Shown here piece by piece: positions 5,527 through 20,217 of a DNA stretch of 33,399 bases. Under the pieces are notes generated by a model. The model had not been told where the DNA came from and ran no database searches. It was given only the letters and a program-made list of their open reading frames with translations. The first letter of the stretch is position 1; each line of letters begins with the position of its first letter. Both the position numbers and the translations under genes were made by a program. The DNA is taken from assembly GCA_049433345.1 (NCBI GenBank), contig JBMTER010000003.1, positions 1 to 33,399 on the forward strand. The letters are read 5' to 3'. Origin of the DNA: Gaiellales bacterium. Lineage in GTDB: Bacteria; Actinomycetota; Thermoleophilia; Gaiellales; F1-60-MAGs149.

Positions 5527-6852
5527 GTGCGCATCCTCGTGATCGGAGCGGGCCGGGTGGGGGCGAGCGTGGTCGCCGCGCTGCACGCCCAGCACGACGT
5601 GACCGTGATCGACGTCGATGCGGAGCACCTGAACGCGATCGGCGCCCGCTACGACGTGCTGACCGTGGCCGGGAACGGCACGTCGCGCAGCGCCATGCAG
5701 AGCGCCAACATCGCCAGCCAGGATCTCGTGATCGCCGCGACGGACCGCGACGAGATCAACATCGTCGCCGCGTTGCAGGCGCGGGCCCTGTGCCGCGGCC
5801 GCATCCTCGTCCGCACCTCGAGCGCCGAATACCTGTCCGCATGGCGCGCAGGCGAGCTGCCGGTCGACGTGATGATCTCCGCCGAGAACGAGATCGCGCA
5901 GGCGGTCTCCCGGGCGATCGGCATGCCCGGCGCGCTGCAGAGCGACATGTTCGCCGACGGCCGCGCCGAGATGGTGGAGTTCGAGGTCCACGCCGACGCC
6001 GCGGAGAACATCGTCGGCCGCCGCATCGCCGAGCTGCGGATCCCCGACGAGAGCGTGATCGCGAGCCTGATCCGCGCCGACCGCGTGCTGATCCCGGGCG
6101 GCGGCGACGTCGTCGAGGAGGGCGACCGGATCGTGCTGATCGCCTCGCCGGCCGCCAGCCGGGAGTGGGCGCTGCGCCTCGCCCGTCGCGACGTCGACGA
6201 CGTCAAGGAGGTCGTCATCGTCGGCGGCGGAGCCACCGGGCGCACGATCGCCCGCACCCTCTGCGGGCAGGGACTGCGCGTCCGCATAGTCGACGCGAAC
6301 GAGGCGGTCGCGCGGATCTGCGCCGAGGAGATCGCGGACGCCGACGTCTTCTGCGCGGACGCGACCGACACCGGCTTCCTCCAGCGAGAGAACGTCGGAC
6401 GCGCCGACGCCGTGATCTGCTGCACGGAGCGCGATGAGCGCGACCTGCTGATCAGCCTGCTCGCCAAATCGCTCGGGGTGCGCGTCGCCGTCGCCGTCGT
6501 CGGCGACCCGGACTACGTCCCGGTCTTCGAGCGCGTCGGCGTCGACTACGCGCTCAACCAGCGCCTCGTGGTGGCGGAGGAGATCGTGCGCTTCACCCAC
6601 GATCCGCGCACCCGCGGCTTCGCGATGCTGGAGAACGATCGCGTCGAGGTGCTCGAACTCGAGGTGCGGCCGACCAGCGCGCTGATCGGCCGGCCGTTCC
6701 GCGAGCGGCCGCTCGAGGGCGCCATCGTCGGCGCGATCGTGCGCGGCGAGCGCGTCATCTTCCCCCGGGGCGACGACGCCCTGATGGCGGGGGATTCGGC
6801 GATCCTGCTCGCGGAGGCGCACCGGGTCCAGGGCCTGGAGCAGGCGCTGTGA
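5527..6852 (+). CDS. trkA: Trk K+ uptake regulatory subunit TrkA (tandem RCK domains)
   Basis: 441 aa; two Rossmann motifs (IGAGRVG, VGGGATG), each followed by an RCK-C-like region; upstream of trkH genes. Confidence 0.93.
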   Translation: MRILVIGAGRVGASVVAALHAQHDVTVIDVDAEHLNAIGARYDVLTVAGNGTSRSAMQSANIASQDLVIAATDRDEINIVAALQARALCRGRILVRTSSAEYLSAWRAGELPVDVMISAENEIAQAVSRAIGMPGALQSDMFADGRAEMVEFEVHADAAENIVGRRIAELRIPDESVIASLIRADRVLIPGGGDVVEEGDRIVLIASPAASREWALRLARRDVDDVKEVVIVGGGATGRTIARTLCGQGLRVRIVDANEAVARICAEEIADADVFCADATDTGFLQRENVGRADAVICCTERDERDLLISLLAKSLGVRVAVAVVGDPDYVPVFERVGVDYALNQRLVVAEEIVRFTHDPRTRGFAMLENDRVEVLELEVRPTSALIGRPFRERPLEGAIVGAIVRGERVIFPRGDDALMAGDSAILLAEAHRVQGLEQAL

Positions 6853-8375
6853 GCCCGGCGGCCGCCCCCCCCCCCCGCCACGGCCGCCTGAGGGTCGACC
6901 TCGGGGCCACCGGAAGCCTCGTCGGGCTGGTCATCAAGTGGCTGAGCCTGACCCTGCTCCTGCCGATCGGGGTGGCGCTCCTCGACGGCGACAGCCTGCG
7001 GCCGTTCGTCGTGCCGCTCGTCGCCGGCGTCGCGGCGGGCTTCGCGCTCGAGCGGATCGCGGGCCGCCGCTCCAACGACGTCGGTGTGCGGGAGGCCTTC
7101 GCCGCCGTCGCGATCGCCTGGCTCGCCGCCGCCCTGCTCGGAGCGGTCCCGTACATCCTCGACGGCGGCGACATCAGCTCCTTCGGCGACGCCTACTTCG
7201 AGGCCATGAGCGGCTTCACCACGACAGGCGCGAGCGTGATGGCCGATATCTCGTCGCACTCCCCGGCGATCCTCTTCTGGCGCTCCCTGACCCAGTGGCT
7301 CGGCGGGATGGGGATCATCGTGCTGGCGATCGCCATCCTCAACCAGGCCGGACCCGGCGGCAAGGCGCTGCTCCAGCAGGAGGCGCCCGGTCCGGAGGCG
7401 GAGAAGCTGACGCCGCGCCTACGCGACACGGCGCTGCGGCTGTGGCTCGTCTACGTGGCGCTCACCGCCCTGCTCGCGATCGCGCTGTGGGGCGTGGGCC
7501 TGATCGCGCCGGAGCAGGGCATGGGGCTGTACAACGCCGTCACGCACGCGTTCACCACCCTGTCGACTGGCGGCTTCTCGCCCGAGCCGCGTTCGATCGA
7601 GGCCTTCGGCGTCGCCTCGCAGGCGCTGATCGCGGGCTTCATGGTCATCGCCGGCGGCAGCTTCGCGCTCTGGTACCGGACCGCCCGCGGTGATCTGGCG
7701 GCCGCCCCGCGCGACGGCGAGTTCCGGACCTACCTCGTGATCATGGCTGTGCTCTCGCTGCTCGTCGGCGTCGCCCTCCTCGCCACGACCGACGCCGGCT
7801 GGGACGGCGCGTTCGGCCAGGCGGCATTCCAGGTGATCTCGATCATGACCACGACGGGCTACGCGTCGCAGGACTTCGCGATCTGGGCGCCGATCGGCCT
7901 GCTGCTCCTGTTCGCCGCGATGTTCATCGGCGGGTGCGCCGGCTCGACCTCAGGCGCGATCAAGGTGATCCGCGTCCGCCTCGCGGTCGCCTCCGCCCGC
8001 CGCGACGTGGAGACGGCCGTCCACCCGGAGAAGGTCCTGCCCGTGCGCCAGAACGGCCGCCCCGTGCGCGAGGCAGCGCTGCAGAGCGCGACGGCCTTCA
8101 TCGGCCTCTACCTCCTTACCTTCGCGATCGGGGCACTCGCGATCCTGCTGATCGCGACGCTGCGCGGCGTCGAACTCGGCGCCTTCGACGCGCTGATCAG
8201 CGCGGCGACCACCATCGGCAACGTCGGCCCGGGCGTGGGGGAGGCCGGACCGATGGGCAGCTACGCCGGGTATCCCTGGGAGGCGAAGGCCGTCATGACC
8301 GCCCTGATGTGGATCGGCCGTCTCGAGCTGATCCCCGTCCTCGTCCTGCTGACCCGGGCGTACTGGCTGCGATGA
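6849..8375 (+). CDS. trkH: Trk K+ uptake membrane subunit TrkH (copy 1)
   Basis: FEAMSGFTTTGAS, QWLGGMGII, TLSTGGFS, IMTTTGY, GGCAGST, IGNVGPG, GRLE motifs; GTG overlaps the trkA stop. Confidence 0.95.
   Translation: MSPAAAPPPRHGRLRVDLGATGSLVGLVIKWLSLTLLLPIGVALLDGDSLRPFVVPLVAGVAAGFALERIAGRRSNDVGVREAFAAVAIAWLAAALLGAVPYILDGGDISSFGDAYFEAMSGFTTTGASVMADISSHSPAILFWRSLTQWLGGMGIIVLAIAILNQAGPGGKALLQQEAPGPEAEKLTPRLRDTALRLWLVYVALTALLAIALWGVGLIAPEQGMGLYNAVTHAFTTLSTGGFSPEPRSIEAFGVASQALIAGFMVIAGGSFALWYRTARGDLAAAPRDGEFRTYLVIMAVLSLLVGVALLATTDAGWDGAFGQAAFQVISIMTTTGYASQDFAIWAPIGLLLLFAAMFIGGCAGSTSGAIKVIRVRLAVASARRDVETAVHPEKVLPVRQNGRPVREAALQSATAFIGLYLLTFAIGALAILLIATLRGVELGAFDALISAATTIGNVGPGVGEAGPMGSYAGYPWEAKAVMTALMWIGRLELIPVLVLLTRAYWLR
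6865..6876 (+). repeat. Poly-C homopolymer (C12) in the first codons of trkH copy 1
   Basis: Direct reading of gccg-cccccccccccc-gcca; currently in frame (encodes A-P-P-P-R). Confidence 0.9.
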
Positions 8376-9883
8376 GCGCCGTCGCGTCCCGCCCCACGGC
8401 CGTCCGCGTCGCGCCGCCCCTGCGCGTGGTCGGCCTGGTCGTGGGCGGCGCGGGCCTCACGATCGCGGCACCGCTCGCCTACGCGGCCTGGCTCGATGAG
8501 CCACTCCTGCCGTACGCGCTGCCCCTGGCGCTCAGCGCGGCCCTCTTCGCCGTCGCCTACCTCGCCGGGCGGCGCGTGGACGCCCCGAATCGTCGCGAGG
8601 CCCTCGCCGCCGCGGTCCTGACGTGGGTCGGCCTGTCGGCGCTCGGCATCCTCCCGTACGTGCTCGGCAGCGCACCCGGCGGGCCGCAGGGCGTCATCGA
8701 CGCCTTCTTCGAGAGCACCGCCGGCTTCACCGCCACCGGCGCCACGATCATCACGGACCTGCCGGCCCAGCCGCGAGCGCTGCTCCTCTGGCGCTCGCAG
8801 ACCCAGTGGATCGGCGGCATCGGCCTGATCGTGCTGGCCGTGATCTTCCTGCCGCGACTCGCCGTCGGCGGCCGCCAGCTGATCGAGACGGAGGTCGCCG
8901 GACCGCAACTCGAGAAGCTGGCCCCGCACCTGCGCGCGTCGACGCTCCGCATCGTCGGGGTCTACGTCGCGCTGACGGTGCTCGTGATCGCCGGCCTGAC
9001 CGCGCTCGGCGCCGCCGGGCTCGCACCCGGCATGGGCCCCTACGAGGCGGTCGCGCACGCCTTCACCACCGTCTCGGCCGGGGGGTTCTCGCCGAGTCCG
9101 GACTCGATCGAGCCGTTCGGTCCGTGGGCGCAGTGGCTGATCGCGGGCGCGATCATCATCGCCGGCACCAACCTCGCGCTGTGGTTCCGGGCGATCGCCC
9201 TCGGGCGGCTGTCGAGCTTCCGAGACGACGAGCTGCGCTGGTACCTCGGCATCCTCGCGGTCGGGTCACTCGTCGTCCTCCTCGAGCTGATGACCGCCGG
9301 CACCTACGACCTCGCCGACGGCGTGCGCCAGGCCGTCTTCCAGGTCGCCTCGATCACGACCGGGACGGGCTACGCCAGCGCCGACTTCGCCGCCTGGGGC
9401 GAGCTCGCGCTGATCACCCTGTTCGTCCTGATGTTCGTCGGCGGCTGCACCGGCAGCCCGACGGGCGCGCTCAAGGTGATGCGCGTCGTGCTCTTCGGCC
9501 GCGTGATCCTGCGGGAGATCCGCGCCACCGTGCACCCCGAGCAGGTGCGCCTGATCCGCATCAACAGTCGACCGGTCAACGCCCGCATCATCCACGGGGT
9601 CCTCGTCTTCGTGCTGCTCTACGTCGTGCTCGTGCTGCTCAGCGCAGTGCTGCTGCTCGTCGATCCCGGCGCCCCCGCCGGCCTCAACTTCGAGGACGCG
9701 CTGAGCGCGGCCGCCGCCAGCGTCGGGAACGTCGGTCCCGGCTTCGGCTTCCTCGGTCCGATGGGGTCCTACGCGCCGTTCGCCGACCCGTCGAAGGTGT
9801 TCCTCGCGCTGCTCATGATCGTCGGGCGCCTCGAGATCTTCCCGGTGCTCGTCGTGCTCAGCCGCGCCTTCTGGCGGGACTAG
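8372..9883 (+). CDS. trkH: Trk K+ uptake membrane subunit TrkH (copy 2)
   Basis: ATG at 8372 overlaps the trkH1 stop (ATGA), in frame with ORF 7934..9883; FESTAGFTATGAT, QWIGGIG, SAGGFS, TTGTGY, VGNVGPG, GRLE. Confidence 0.93.
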   Translation: MSAVASRPTAVRVAPPLRVVGLVVGGAGLTIAAPLAYAAWLDEPLLPYALPLALSAALFAVAYLAGRRVDAPNRREALAAAVLTWVGLSALGILPYVLGSAPGGPQGVIDAFFESTAGFTATGATIITDLPAQPRALLLWRSQTQWIGGIGLIVLAVIFLPRLAVGGRQLIETEVAGPQLEKLAPHLRASTLRIVGVYVALTVLVIAGLTALGAAGLAPGMGPYEAVAHAFTTVSAGGFSPSPDSIEPFGPWAQWLIAGAIIIAGTNLALWFRAIALGRLSSFRDDELRWYLGILAVGSLVVLLELMTAGTYDLADGVRQAVFQVASITTGTGYASADFAAWGELALITLFVLMFVGGCTGSPTGALKVMRVVLFGRVILREIRATVHPEQVRLIRINSRPVNARIIHGVLVFVLLYVVLVLLSAVLLLVDPGAPAGLNFEDALSAAAASVGNVGPGFGFLGPMGSYAPFADPSKVFLALLMIVGRLEIFPVLVVLSRAFWRD

Positions 9884-9909
9884 GACGGCGGTCGGCGTAT
9901 ACTGCCCGC

Positions 9910-9935
9910 GGAGCGCCGGGAAGCCTGGTCGGCAA
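9910..9935 (+). ncRNA. Candidate monovalent-cation (Na+/Li+) riboswitch-like cis-regulatory RNA
   Basis: GGAGCGCCGGGAAGCCTGGTCGGCAA begins 6 nt after a TATACT -10 element (9898-9903), can fold with GCCG/CGGC closing a G-rich loop, and precedes an NhaD-like gene. The class assignment is unverified. Confidence 0.5.
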
Positions 9936-9975
9936 CATCGCACCCGCCGGAGGCGGCGGAGAGGGGGACCCCGAC

Positions 9976-11238
9976 GTGGCATTGCTCGTCTCCGCGATCT
10001 TCGCGGCCGCACTGATCGCCATCGTGGCGGACTGGATCGACCGCACGAAGATCGCACTCCTCGGCGCCGCCGCCGTCGTCCTGGTCGGCGCGCTGACCGT
10101 CGACACGGCGGTCGAATCGGTCGACTGGCAGACGCTCGGCCTCCTGGTCGGGATGATGATCATCGTCGTCCTCGTCGAGCCGACGGGGATCTTCGGCTAC
10201 CTCGGCCTGCACGCCGCGCGCCTGTCGCGTGGCCGTCCGATGCGGCTCCTGTTCCTGCTCGGCCTGTTGACCGGGACGATGTCGGCTTTCCTCGACAACC
10301 TGACAGCGATCCTGCTGGTGCTGCCGATGGCCTTCGCGGTCTCCCGCCAGCTCGGCATCTCGCCGATCCCCCTCGTGGTCACGCAGATCCTGAGCAGCAA
10401 CCTCGGCGGAACGGCGACGCTGATCGGCGATCCGCCGAACATCATGATCGGCGGCGCCAAGCCCGAGCTCTCGTTCGTCGAATTCATCGTCAACCTCGCG
10501 CCGCCGTCCGTCGTCGCGCTCGTGGTCGCGATCCTGATGCTGCGCGTGCTGTTCCGACACGACCTGCGCTACGACCCCGTGCGGGCTGCGGCGCTGCAGG
10601 ACCTCGTCCCGTCGTCCGAGCTACGCGAGTCGACGGCACGCCGCGCAGTCGTCCTCGGGGTGCTGGGCCTGACGCTGCTCGCGTTCTTCGCCCACAACGC
10701 GATCCACCTCGCGCCCGCGGTCGTCGCGCTGTGCGGCGCGACCGCGATGCTGCTGGTCACCGACGTCAAGATCGAGAAGGCCCTCGAACGCGTCGAATGG
10801 GCGACCCTGTTCTTCTTCATCGGCCTCTTCGTGATGGTCGGCGCGCTCGAGCAGCAGGGCGTGATCGAGCGCATCGCCGACGTCGTCCAGGAGATGACCA
10901 GCGGCAGCGAGCCGATCCAGGCGCTGGTGATCCTGTGGGGTGCCGCCGTCGGGTCCGCGCTCGTCGACAACATCCCGTTCACGGCCGCGATGATCCCGGT
11001 CGTCGACCAGATCGATGGCGCCGGGATCAAGCCGTTCCTGTGGTGGTCGCTCGCGCTCGGCGCCTGCTTCGGCGGCAACGCGACGATGGTGGCCGCCGCC
11101 GCCAACGTCGCCGCCACCGGCATCGCGAAGCGCGAGGGGCACCCGATCTCGTTCGCGCGCTTCCTGCTGTACGGCCTGCCCGTGACGATCGTGTCGCTCG
11201 TGATCGCCACGCTCTGGGTCCAGCTGGTGCTGCTCTGA
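9976..11238 (+). CDS. ArsB/NhaD (ion transporter superfamily) permease, possible Na+/H+ antiporter
   Basis: GTG at 9976 after a GGAGAGGGGG RBS, in frame with ORF 8623..11238; DWQTLGLLVGMMI, SAFLDNLT, SNLGGTATLIGDPPNIMIG, SALVDNIPF, GACFGGNATMV..AAN motifs. Confidence 0.88.
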   Translation: MALLVSAIFAAALIAIVADWIDRTKIALLGAAAVVLVGALTVDTAVESVDWQTLGLLVGMMIIVVLVEPTGIFGYLGLHAARLSRGRPMRLLFLLGLLTGTMSAFLDNLTAILLVLPMAFAVSRQLGISPIPLVVTQILSSNLGGTATLIGDPPNIMIGGAKPELSFVEFIVNLAPPSVVALVVAILMLRVLFRHDLRYDPVRAAALQDLVPSSELRESTARRAVVLGVLGLTLLAFFAHNAIHLAPAVVALCGATAMLLVTDVKIEKALERVEWATLFFFIGLFVMVGALEQQGVIERIADVVQEMTSGSEPIQALVILWGAAVGSALVDNIPFTAAMIPVVDQIDGAGIKPFLWWSLALGACFGGNATMVAAAANVAATGIAKREGHPISFARFLLYGLPVTIVSLVIATLWVQLVLL

Positions 11239-11311
11239 CGCGCCCGGCAGGATTCGAACCTGCGGCCTCGAGATTAGAAGTCTCTCGCTCTATCCCCTGA
11301 GCTACGGGCGC
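11239..11311 (-). tRNA. tRNA-Arg (anticodon TCT)
   Basis: Reverse complement GCGCCCGTAGCTCAGGGGATAGAGCGAGAGACTTCTAATCTCGAGGCCGCAGGTTCGAATCCTGCCGGGCGCG: 7-bp acceptor stem, D-arm, CT-TCT-AA loop, GGTTCGAATCC T-arm; CCA not encoded. Confidence 0.95.
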
Positions 11312-20142: not shown

Positions 20143-20217
20143 GGTGAGCGGTGGGACTCGAACCCACGACCGCCGGGACCACAACCCGGAGCTACCACCA
20201 GCTGAGCTACGCCCACC
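20143..20217 (-). tRNA. tRNA-His (anticodon GTG), including genomic G-1
   Basis: Reverse complement GGTGGGCGTAGCTCAGCTGGTGGTAGCTCCGGGTTGTGGTCCCGGCGGTCGTGGGTTCGAGTCCCACCGCTCACC: CCGGG/CCCGG stem with TT-GTG-GT loop, G-1:C73 identity pair; followed by CCT rather than CCA. Confidence 0.93.

Follow-up and report, generated by a model that had tools for sequence, protein, structure and literature searches.

A 25-nucleotide leader hairpin as a candidate cis-regulatory RNA of sodium and lithium export genes in Actinomycetota

Our comparative analysis indicated that a short motif in the leader of a putative ion permease gene from a Gaiellales bacterium recurs across Actinomycetota as an RNA hairpin, mostly upstream of cation-transport genes. 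The DNA analyzed is a contig stretch of 33,399 nucleotides (nt), hereafter the window, in which the permease gene follows the second of two tandem trkH genes. The full motif is 25 nt long and reads GGNGY-GCCGGGAAGNCUGGUCGGC-R (i.e., GGNGY-GCCGGGAAGYCUGGUCGGC-R; positions -5 to -1, 1 to 19, and +20). It is very probably a functional cis-regulatory RNA. The full model, in which the motif is a cis-regulatory leader RNA of an uncatalogued class for Na+/Li+ export genes, with direct cation sensing and ON logic, is one that we hold with about equal belief and doubt.

An earlier note on the window had proposed a cation-responsive leader here, reading TATACT, GGAGCGCCGGGAAGCCTGGTCGGCAA, a hairpin at 9944-9956, GGAGAGGGGG, and a GTG at 9976, and all of these features are present in the sequence. 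It had made its proposal depend on conservation upstream of orthologues and other cation transporters, and such conservation was found. The permease gene was present in 4 of 24 other sampled genomes of the genus, as well as in a few more distant genomes. All four genus-level loci retained the trkH-permease arrangement, and all four leaders retained the block GCGCCGGGAAGCCTGGTCGGCA (variants AAGTCTGG and GGGGAGCCCGG) within a diverged flanking intergenic sequence. A TANNNT box occurred at matching spacing in four of the five orthologous leaders (the window and the four others). In a pair of 94%-identical orthologues, the spacing from block to start codon differs by a 1-nt indel, and the block is therefore not an N-terminal protein extension. 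The distant orthologues (62-48% identity) had neither the trkH neighbor nor the block. A second hairpin of the CCGCC/GGCGG type was found in only three of the five orthologous leaders; counterparts of different sequence occupied the same place in L009 (CCGCCG/CGGCGG) and L007 (CCACC/GGUGG) and were not clear in L002 and L013. The motif is single-copy in the window's own genome, and within the genus the block-bearing genomes are exactly the four other permease-bearing genomes. Across the family, 10 of 37 genomes matched a pattern search for the block, and the reversed-pattern control gave one match. In other genera of the family, the genes that follow the block encode Na+/H+ exchangers, a KdpD-like kinase, an APC-type permease, and a Na/Ca exchanger; at one locus there are three copies, including a divergent pair separated by about 100 nt.

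An exact scan for GCCGGGRAGYCYGRTCGGC, with one genome per species, returned at least 120 stretches. Among the 80 matches listed, 78 record titles were actinobacterial, with one Chloroflexi and one Pirellulales metagenome-assembled genome (MAG); the actinobacterial taxa listed included Streptomyces, Nocardia, Mycobacterium, Arthrobacter, Leucobacter, Microbacterium, Acidimicrobiales, Gaiellales, and Solirubrobacterales. The exact-scan matches and the family loci together gave 137 instances, 135 of which had full flanks. Bases outside the search pattern were also conserved, with G at positions -5, -4, and -2 each found in 133 of the 135 instances. Position -3 was U in 95, A in 20, C in 16, and G in 4; position -1 was U in 72, C in 49, A in 13, and G in 1; and position +20 was G in 63, A in 60, C in 10, and U in 2. 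Almost all matches to the pattern are genuine members. Four instances without GGNG were dropped, leaving 131: L078 and L128 look like chance matches, while the L025 copy and one of those in L029 are true members that have diverged. With up to two mismatches allowed, 120 of the 401 phylum genomes sampled (about 30%) contained the 24-nt pattern, as did 79 of 249 genera, against about 12 matches for the reversed-pattern control in the 401 genomes (counted among the matches listed). Its distribution was very uneven across families (e.g., 10/10, 18/21, and 14/22 versus 0/28, 0/19, and 1/31). One copy with the full motif and a GGGG tail lies on a contig binned as Chloroflexi (L052); the contig may have been misbinned, or the motif may on rare occasions occur beyond Actinomycetota.

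Trained on 150 distinct 29-mers, a covariance model separated the motif sharply from background. Its scores were bimodal in 100 loci, where all known sites scored 38-49 bits and the next best match 22.4, and in 151 genomes it returned 68 matches of at least 35 bits, the remainder scoring at most 29.2. The window segment 9908-9936 scored 45.5 bits (E 2.2e-6), a partly circular value in that the window is among the training rows, the orthologues and the other 149 rows having been collected independently. The window copy also agrees with the class in its -10 spacing of 7 nt, its gene-ward orientation, the C9914/A9934 pair, the GGAG tail, and the transporter superfamily gene downstream. Weaker variant forms of the motif were considered and set aside: 17 matches of at most 29 bits were inspected, all of them without motif context, and the clearest low-scoring matches lie within genes (e.g., two conserved coding pairs). 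The 401-genome and 151-genome tallies include a few genomes flagged as unpublished; the other claims made here are independent of those genomes.

Downstream open reading frames (ORFs) were scored for 112 of the 137 instances (start within 160 nt, at least 100 amino acids [aa], and G+C content at third codon positions [GC3] of at least 0.75); 25 instances were dropped, 11 of them because no ORF was present or the locus end was reached. Cation-transport proteins accounted for 88 of the 112 ORFs. The Pfam assignments were NhaA (54), Na_H_Exchanger (21, of which 7 have a TrkA_C domain), Na_Ca_ex (4), CitMHS (4, the window's own group), ABC_tran (3), MrpA-type (1), and TrkH (1), and the first two bear out the statement in the earlier note that the core recurs upstream of actinobacterial cation/H+ antiporters. 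The remaining ORFs include CBS-pair (5), DUF2254 (4), and PPDK_N (2) proteins, together with a single SulP protein, KdpD-like kinase, and APC permease. Loci from the 401-genome scan add four MrpA-type genes, a P-type cation ATPase, and a weakly matching CDF (cation-efflux) protein.

The position of the motif was closely tied to the promoter. In 76 of 131 instances, a TANNNT box had its last T 7-9 nt upstream of the motif, and 50 of these showed a spacing of 8 nt; the window has a spacing of 7 nt. It is common for actinobacterial promoters to have only such a -10 box, with the transcription start some 6-8 nt beyond it. This spacing, combined with the typical start distance, would place the block at the very 5′ end of the mRNA, and the sequence suggests that the transcript starts at, or one or two bases from, the first G of the motif. 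The probable start site is thus not downstream of the motif, in agreement with the earlier note, the block lying just 3′ of a conserved -10 box. A simple sigma-70 (Escherichia coli-type) scan called no promoter in the window leader. A coding reading of the motif, as a small or leaderless ORF beginning at a GUG inside GGUG, was rejected because 36 of 131 copies, the window included, lack U at position -3, because the would-be third codon positions are invariant in all three frames, and because of the 1-nt indel between orthologues.

Sequence variation among the copies argued for a folded RNA. The outer stem comprises G1-C19, C2-G18, C3-G17, and G4-C16, capped by G5·U15, and encloses the nearly invariant loop GAAGNCUGG. 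Its pairs were preserved in two-mismatch variants: pair 2-18 by C2-to-U with G18-to-A in three genomes and by C2-to-G with G18-to-C in one, pair 3-17 by C3-to-U with G17-to-A in one genome, and pair 1-19 by G1-to-U with C19-to-A in one genome. Apart from the C2-to-G/G18-to-C copy, the variant copies are located 3′ of a TANNNT box, three of them before Pfam-confirmed NhaA genes; the copy varying at pair 1-19 stands before an ABC ATPase gene, divergent from a canonical copy. A C16-to-U change (G4·U16) was also present, before a gene that is NhaA-like by eye. In the 150-row alignment, three stem pairs changed on both sides, a result equalled in 1 of 500 shuffles, and no cell in the four G-C pairs was unpaired. 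The pair closing the stem was C/A in 41, U/G in 58, U/A in 10, and C/G in 1 of the 131 instances; no other two columns had as much mutual information (Fisher p 1.7e-19), and both closing-pair types were found inside single loci. The interchange of U·G and C·A is a classic isosteric wobble exchange in structured RNAs. The genomes G217, G163, and G389 each contain a canonical copy alongside a compensated one, and the motif always points toward the gene; where two genes are divergent, each has its own copy. The compensatory changes, wobble covariation, coexisting copies, and gene-ward orientation support an RNA hairpin rather than the DNA site of a protein.

The two mutually exclusive pairings that the earlier note had recognized in the window, GCCG (9915-18) with CGGC (9930-33) and GCCGG (9915-19) with CTGGT (9925-29), are both present, and only the outer one was upheld by compensatory changes. 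The inner hairpin (CCGGG/CYUGG) was rejected, as it showed no double changes and is broken by variants with A or G at position 10 (where any base occurs), U12-to-G, and G14-to-A. A two-tier G-quadruplex formed from the GG tracts was likewise rejected, since natural variants substitute G17 or G18. A possible pairing between the GGNG tail and CNCC farther downstream showed no covariation with the variable base -3, and no clear covariation was seen between base -3 and loop position 10. Nearest-neighbor energies were -7.0 kcal/mol for the covariation-supported stem and -7.7 kcal/mol for a register-shifted hairpin, and the modeled hairpin may be intrinsically bistable.

Searches of Rfam 15 were consistent with the suggestion in the earlier note that the leader belongs to an unclassified class. 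The cmscan of the whole window at gathering score returned two tRNAs only, a scan of 9780-10080 at E<=10 returned one chance miRNA match only, and no match fell at the motif in 18 related loci or, at E<=10, in L045. The sub-threshold matches mir-1288, Scr3202, and Pab19 were dismissed as noise. The sole gathering-score match in the 18 related loci was an Ms_IGR-5 small RNA (L045, 7551-7801, + strand), which sits just 3′ of the motif-controlled nhaA gene in a Blastococcus record.

An enriched element downstream of the motif suggested an alternative pairing. Of 131 leaders, 85 had GACC no more than 80 nt past the motif, compared with 33 in the reversed control; for CGACC the counts were 58 and 17, and for CCGACC 38 and 10, with a peak 10-14 nt past the core. 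This element is complementary to GGUCGG of the motif (loop G13 and G14 plus stem U15-G18) and would therefore compete with the hairpin stem; in the window, the bases at 9929-9934 are alternatively able to pair with the downstream CGAC(C) element. In 24 of the 131 leaders, CGACC was followed within 4 nt by a Shine-Dalgarno-like sequence, compared with a shuffled mean of 0.9 and maximum of 4. Seven leaders contain CCGACCRGA, a perfect 9-nt complement of UCUGGUCGG that incorporates the first Shine-Dalgarno bases; Streptomyces is named in six of the seven records listed. Some leaders have a variable hairpin between the block and CGACC, as expected if an RNA helix closes a variable insert. The predicted minimum free energy (MFE) structure of the window pairs 9928-9932 with CCGAC at 9971-9975 and GCC at 9923-9925 with GGC at 9978-9980, spanning the GUG start.

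We propose that the RNA would begin with the 4-nt GGNG tail, followed by a hairpin consisting of a wobble-type closing pair (U·G or C·A), four G-C pairs, and the G·U cap. Without the signal, the 3′ strand of the stem (UCGGC, with GG of the loop) would pair with (C)CGACC and hide the ribosome-binding region; this element is often fused to the Shine-Dalgarno sequence and, in the window, to the GUG start codon. The signal would stabilize the 5′ hairpin, leaving the ribosome-binding region free and the transporter translated, as in an ON-type switch, and would most likely be cytoplasmic Na+ or Li+ bound directly by the RNA. We infer the direction of the switch, its ligand, and the start of transcription. 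The 25-nt 5′-terminal hairpin alone could be a complete Na+ or Li+ aptamer, and a new riboswitch class unrelated to Li+-I, Li+-II, and Na+-I, a tentative reading toward which we remain somewhat more doubtful than confident; as an aptamer, and jointly with that reading, the wobble-geometry closing pair and the G·U cap would form part of the ion site.

Several observations weigh against an ON switch operated by direct cation binding. The pairing that would occlude the ribosome-binding region of the window was no stronger than that of shuffled regions (-15.1 versus -14.7 +/- 3.2 kcal/mol), and in 77 leaders the 3′ half of the core paired with positions -22 to +6 of the start codon no better than with shuffled sequences (mean z -0.24, Wilcoxon p 0.13). 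These null results suggest that the occlusion model holds for a subset of leaders and not demonstrably for the window gene; of the cation-responsive translational switch put forward in the earlier note, the conserved cis element was supported, with ion response and translational control in the window remaining proposals. About half of the leaders are without CGACC, and in some the start codon lies about 10-15 nt past the hairpin, where the hairpin itself might hinder the ribosome and reverse the sign of the switch. The fold energy of the leader was at the shuffled level (z +0.26 for 9884-9990, +0.01 for 9909-9985, and -0.39 for 9909-9936), and for the window the energies favor the register-shifted hairpin (P(C2-G18) = 0.004). 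The closing "pair" is non-standard in 78 of 150 sequences. Double changes in the almost invariant stem occur in only 5 of 150 sequences, which is atypical of riboswitch stems and would suit recognition by a protein. We know of no aptamer class as small as this 25-nt motif. Because NhaA and Mrp also function in pH homeostasis under alkaline conditions, pH rather than an ion could be the signal.

The main rival to direct cation sensing is that the hairpin serves as an RNA operator for a trans-acting RNA-binding protein or other conserved factor acting as the sensor of sodium, pH, or membrane stress, the signal itself not being bound by the RNA. We consider this unlikely, albeit deserving of serious attention. 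A stem and loop that are nearly invariant phylum-wide within only 25 nt are typical of protein-recognized hairpins, and the motif precedes genes for small CBS-pair (5 of 112), DUF2254 (4), and KdpD-like kinase (1) proteins, which are possible feedback-controlled regulators. However, no linked candidate emerged from the 73 predicted divergent neighbor ORFs, among which no Pfam family appeared more than three times, and the wobble-isosteric covariation and competing downstream pairing are as expected of a self-contained RNA switch; a factor encoded elsewhere is still compatible with both findings. A ligand-free 5′-end element, either a stem protecting the transcript from 5′-end-dependent decay or a bistable hairpin shifting with ionic strength, pH (through the C·A pair), or temperature, appears less likely again and, in our view, improbable. 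The strictly 5′-terminal location, the two nearly isoenergetic registers predicted, and a C·A closing pair that could in principle be sensitive to protonation are in its favor, but a generic stabilizer would need neither the invariant 9-nt loop nor the GGNG tail and would not be confined to Na+/cation export genes, and the commoner closing pair, U·G, is not pH-sensitive. We regard as very improbable a DNA operator at +1 to +25 through which a transcription factor blocks RNA polymerase. The block does lie immediately 3′ of the -10 box, a classic repressor position, and GCCG...CGGC forms an imperfect inverted repeat; yet the G·U pair, the G·U variant produced by C16-to-U, and the U·G/C·A covariation 21 nt apart make sense only in RNA. 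Moreover, canonical and doubly substituted copies share genomes despite the weakening of both half-sites that a double substitution would cause, each divergent gene has its own gene-ward copy, and no regulator gene recurred beside the motif among the same divergent neighbors.

The mapped features of the window are listed in Table 1. The permease matched Pfam CitMHS (2.1e-79) and fell below the cut-offs of the NCBIfam NhaD, ArsB, and MamN models: 79.1 bits versus 577.1 for TIGR00775 (NhaD) and 63.5 versus 80 for NF038006, with a MamN-like model as the best match (204.7 versus a cut-off of 500) and the ArsB models likewise below their cut-offs. On its sequence, the permease is assignable to the superfamily level only and not to NhaD. 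Guilt by association with the other motif-bearing genes supports a Na+-related role for the permease, which is favored over arsenite transport. The two tandem trkH paralogues upstream (6849-9883) both match Pfam TrkH, and the probable ATG start of the second (8372) overlaps the stop codon of the first (8373-8375). A tRNA gene (11239-11311, - strand) directly adjoins the permease stop codon (11236-11238), no nucleotide lying between them, and a further tRNA lies at 20143-20216 (- strand).

Table 1. Mapped features of the permease leader and adjoining genes, in window coordinates
Feature	Position	Strand	Remarks
Source DNA		forward	33,399 nt, contig JBMTER010000003.1, assembly GCA_049433345.1, Gaiellales bacterium
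TAG stop of the second of two tandem trkH genes	9881..9883	+	92-nt intergenic region starts after it
TATACT, -10-like hexamer (TANNNT type)	9898..9903	+	Last T 7 nt before the first G of the motif
Leader motif GGAGCGCCGGGAAGCCTGGTCGGCAA	begins 9910	+	Read from sequence
Motif copy GGAGC-GCCGGGAAGCCUGGUCGGC-A, 25 nt	9910-9934	+	
GGAG 5′ tail (consensus GGNG)	9910..9913	+	Probable transcript 5′ end at about 9909-9910, from -10 spacing
Stem 5′ strand: closing C9914, then G1 C2 C3 G4 G5 (9915-9919)	9914..9919	+	Compensatory variants
9-nt loop GAAGCCUGG (consensus GAAGNCUGG)	9920..9928	+	Only position 10 (= 9924) freely variable
Stem 3′ strand: U15 C16 G17 G18 C19 (9929-9933), then closing A9934	9929..9934	+	
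Second, variable hairpin CCGCC-GGA-GGCGG	9944..9956	+	Immediately 5′ of the ribosome-binding site
Purine-rich Shine-Dalgarno region GGAGAGGGGG	9958..9967	+	Putative, from position
CCGAC element adjoining the start codon	9971..9975	+	Predicted MFE partner of 9928-9932 (GUCGG)
Permease gene, 420 aa, GTG start at 9976	9976..11238	+	CitMHS/ArsB/NhaD (ion transporter) superfamily

Other arrangements were observed among the motif-bearing loci. Back-to-back pairs of the motif lie on opposite strands 100-600 nt apart, each copy facing its own transporter gene (G049:C6 with L029 and L033, G188:C116, G146:C61 and C304, G174:C124, G267:C10, and G163:C9); some of these loci have a third copy a few kilobases away and look like small sodium-export islands. 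In two Streptomyces loci (L072 and L088), a motif-controlled Na+/H+ exchanger gene has a KdpD-type sensor gene as its divergent neighbor, and one G049 copy of the motif lies immediately 5′ of a KdpD-like kinase gene, which may tie K+ to Na+ control. At the MrpA-type loci, four of five copies have unusual loops, with G or A at position 10 (L162 and L177) or U12-to-G (L165 and L166), and L170 is canonical; these loop variants may be a differently tuned subclass. Some genes downstream of the motif have no evident transport role, namely those for small CBS-pair proteins (L043, L058, L060, L100, and L110) and PEP-utilizing proteins with a PPDK_N domain (L111 and L127), and the DUF2254 membrane-protein instances are probably L039, L051, L094, and L141. 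The CBS-type leaders have an additional variable hairpin and a possible short upstream start codon.

Bacterial sodium sensing is largely unknown, and the known Na+ and Li+ riboswitches are rare and have not been reported from Actinomycetota. The motif precedes most kinds of Na+ exporters. If it is a sensor, it would define the sodium/lithium stress regulon for a phylum to which major producers of antibiotics, as well as pathogens, belong; if the aptamer reading is true, a sodium-export regulon (NhaA, CPA, Mrp, NatAB-like, and P-type ATPase) would be governed by it across Actinomycetota, including Streptomyces, Nocardia, and Mycobacterium. A sensor of this kind would be a very small natural RNA module for ion-responsive expression, and it would suggest a Na+-related role for the uncharacterized motif-bearing genes, such as those of the CitMHS/ArsB-NhaD permease, DUF2254, CBS-pair, and PPDK_N-domain enzymes. 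The entire candidate sensor is short enough to be made as a synthetic oligonucleotide.

No description of the motif or of its 12-13-nt core pieces was found in the searchable literature text, outside of which lay figures, supplements, and most subscription journals. A 50-genome survey that includes Streptomyces avermitilis lists other motifs, and "nhaA" and "antiporter" are absent from its main text. The motif is a candidate new class within a known kind, the cation-transporter leader RNAs, and may have been described before. Guanidine-II (mini-ykkC) illustrates that a short conserved-loop hairpin beside the ribosome-binding site can be a complete sensor; it differs from the motif in sequence, ligand, and gene set and works as paired hairpins, and we claim no relationship between the two.

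Closer parallels are found among the cation sensors. For the validated Li+ and Na+ riboswitches, the downstream gene is mainly nhaA or encodes another cation transporter, and the authors favor the ribosome-binding site as the most common point of action (White et al. 2022, PMC9646797). The Na+-I class (DUF1646) is associated with mixed Na+-related genes, including antiporters and ATP-driven Na+ exporters (PMC9337991), similar to the regulon of the motif (NhaA, CPA, Mrp, NatA-like ABC, and P-type ATPase). It has been reported from Firmicutes, Proteobacteria, Acidobacteria, and Verrucomicrobia with a two-stem aptamer (PMC9337991), whereas the motif forms one hairpin, and no Rfam match to Na+-I was obtained in the window or the related loci scanned. 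Transcription termination is the switching mode of the Na+-I representative tested, and DUF1646 RNAs are generally followed by terminators (Weinberg et al. 2017, PMC5737381); in the window, no terminator-like sites were found within 9500-10300. The NhaR protein of E. coli, a LysR-type Na+-responsive activator, performs the same task as that proposed for the motif, turning nhaA on as Na+ rises, but it is a protein acting on DNA (PMC9337991), whereas the motif data point to an RNA element. Only one validated Na+-sensing protein regulator is noted in the Na+ riboswitch paper (White et al. 2022, PMC9337991).

Li+-II (nhaA-II) is an RNA of independent architecture that shares with the motif its dominant gene, nhaA (PMC9646797). 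It is reported only from some Gammaproteobacteria and without similarity to nhaA-I (PMC9646797); the motif is tentatively set apart from nhaA-II only by taxonomy and by the absence of any Rfam 15 match, a database whose inclusion of nhaA-II is unconfirmed. The Li+-I class (nhaA-I, including Na+-sensing variants) has been reported from Proteobacteria (PMC9646797, PMC5737381), whereas the motif is found in Actinomycetota; its Rfam model was unmatched in the window and 19 other loci, and the motif, a single 25-nt 5′-terminal hairpin, has no sequence likeness to nhaA-I. In its genetic context, Li+-I resembles the motif as a 5′ leader RNA whose most frequent downstream gene is nhaA, with nhaD and other cation-transporter genes also represented (PMC9646797, PMC5737381). 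The authors who described Li+-I favor control of ribosome access as its main mode of action, with expression turned on as the cation rises (PMC9646797), and we propose that the motif would act likewise.

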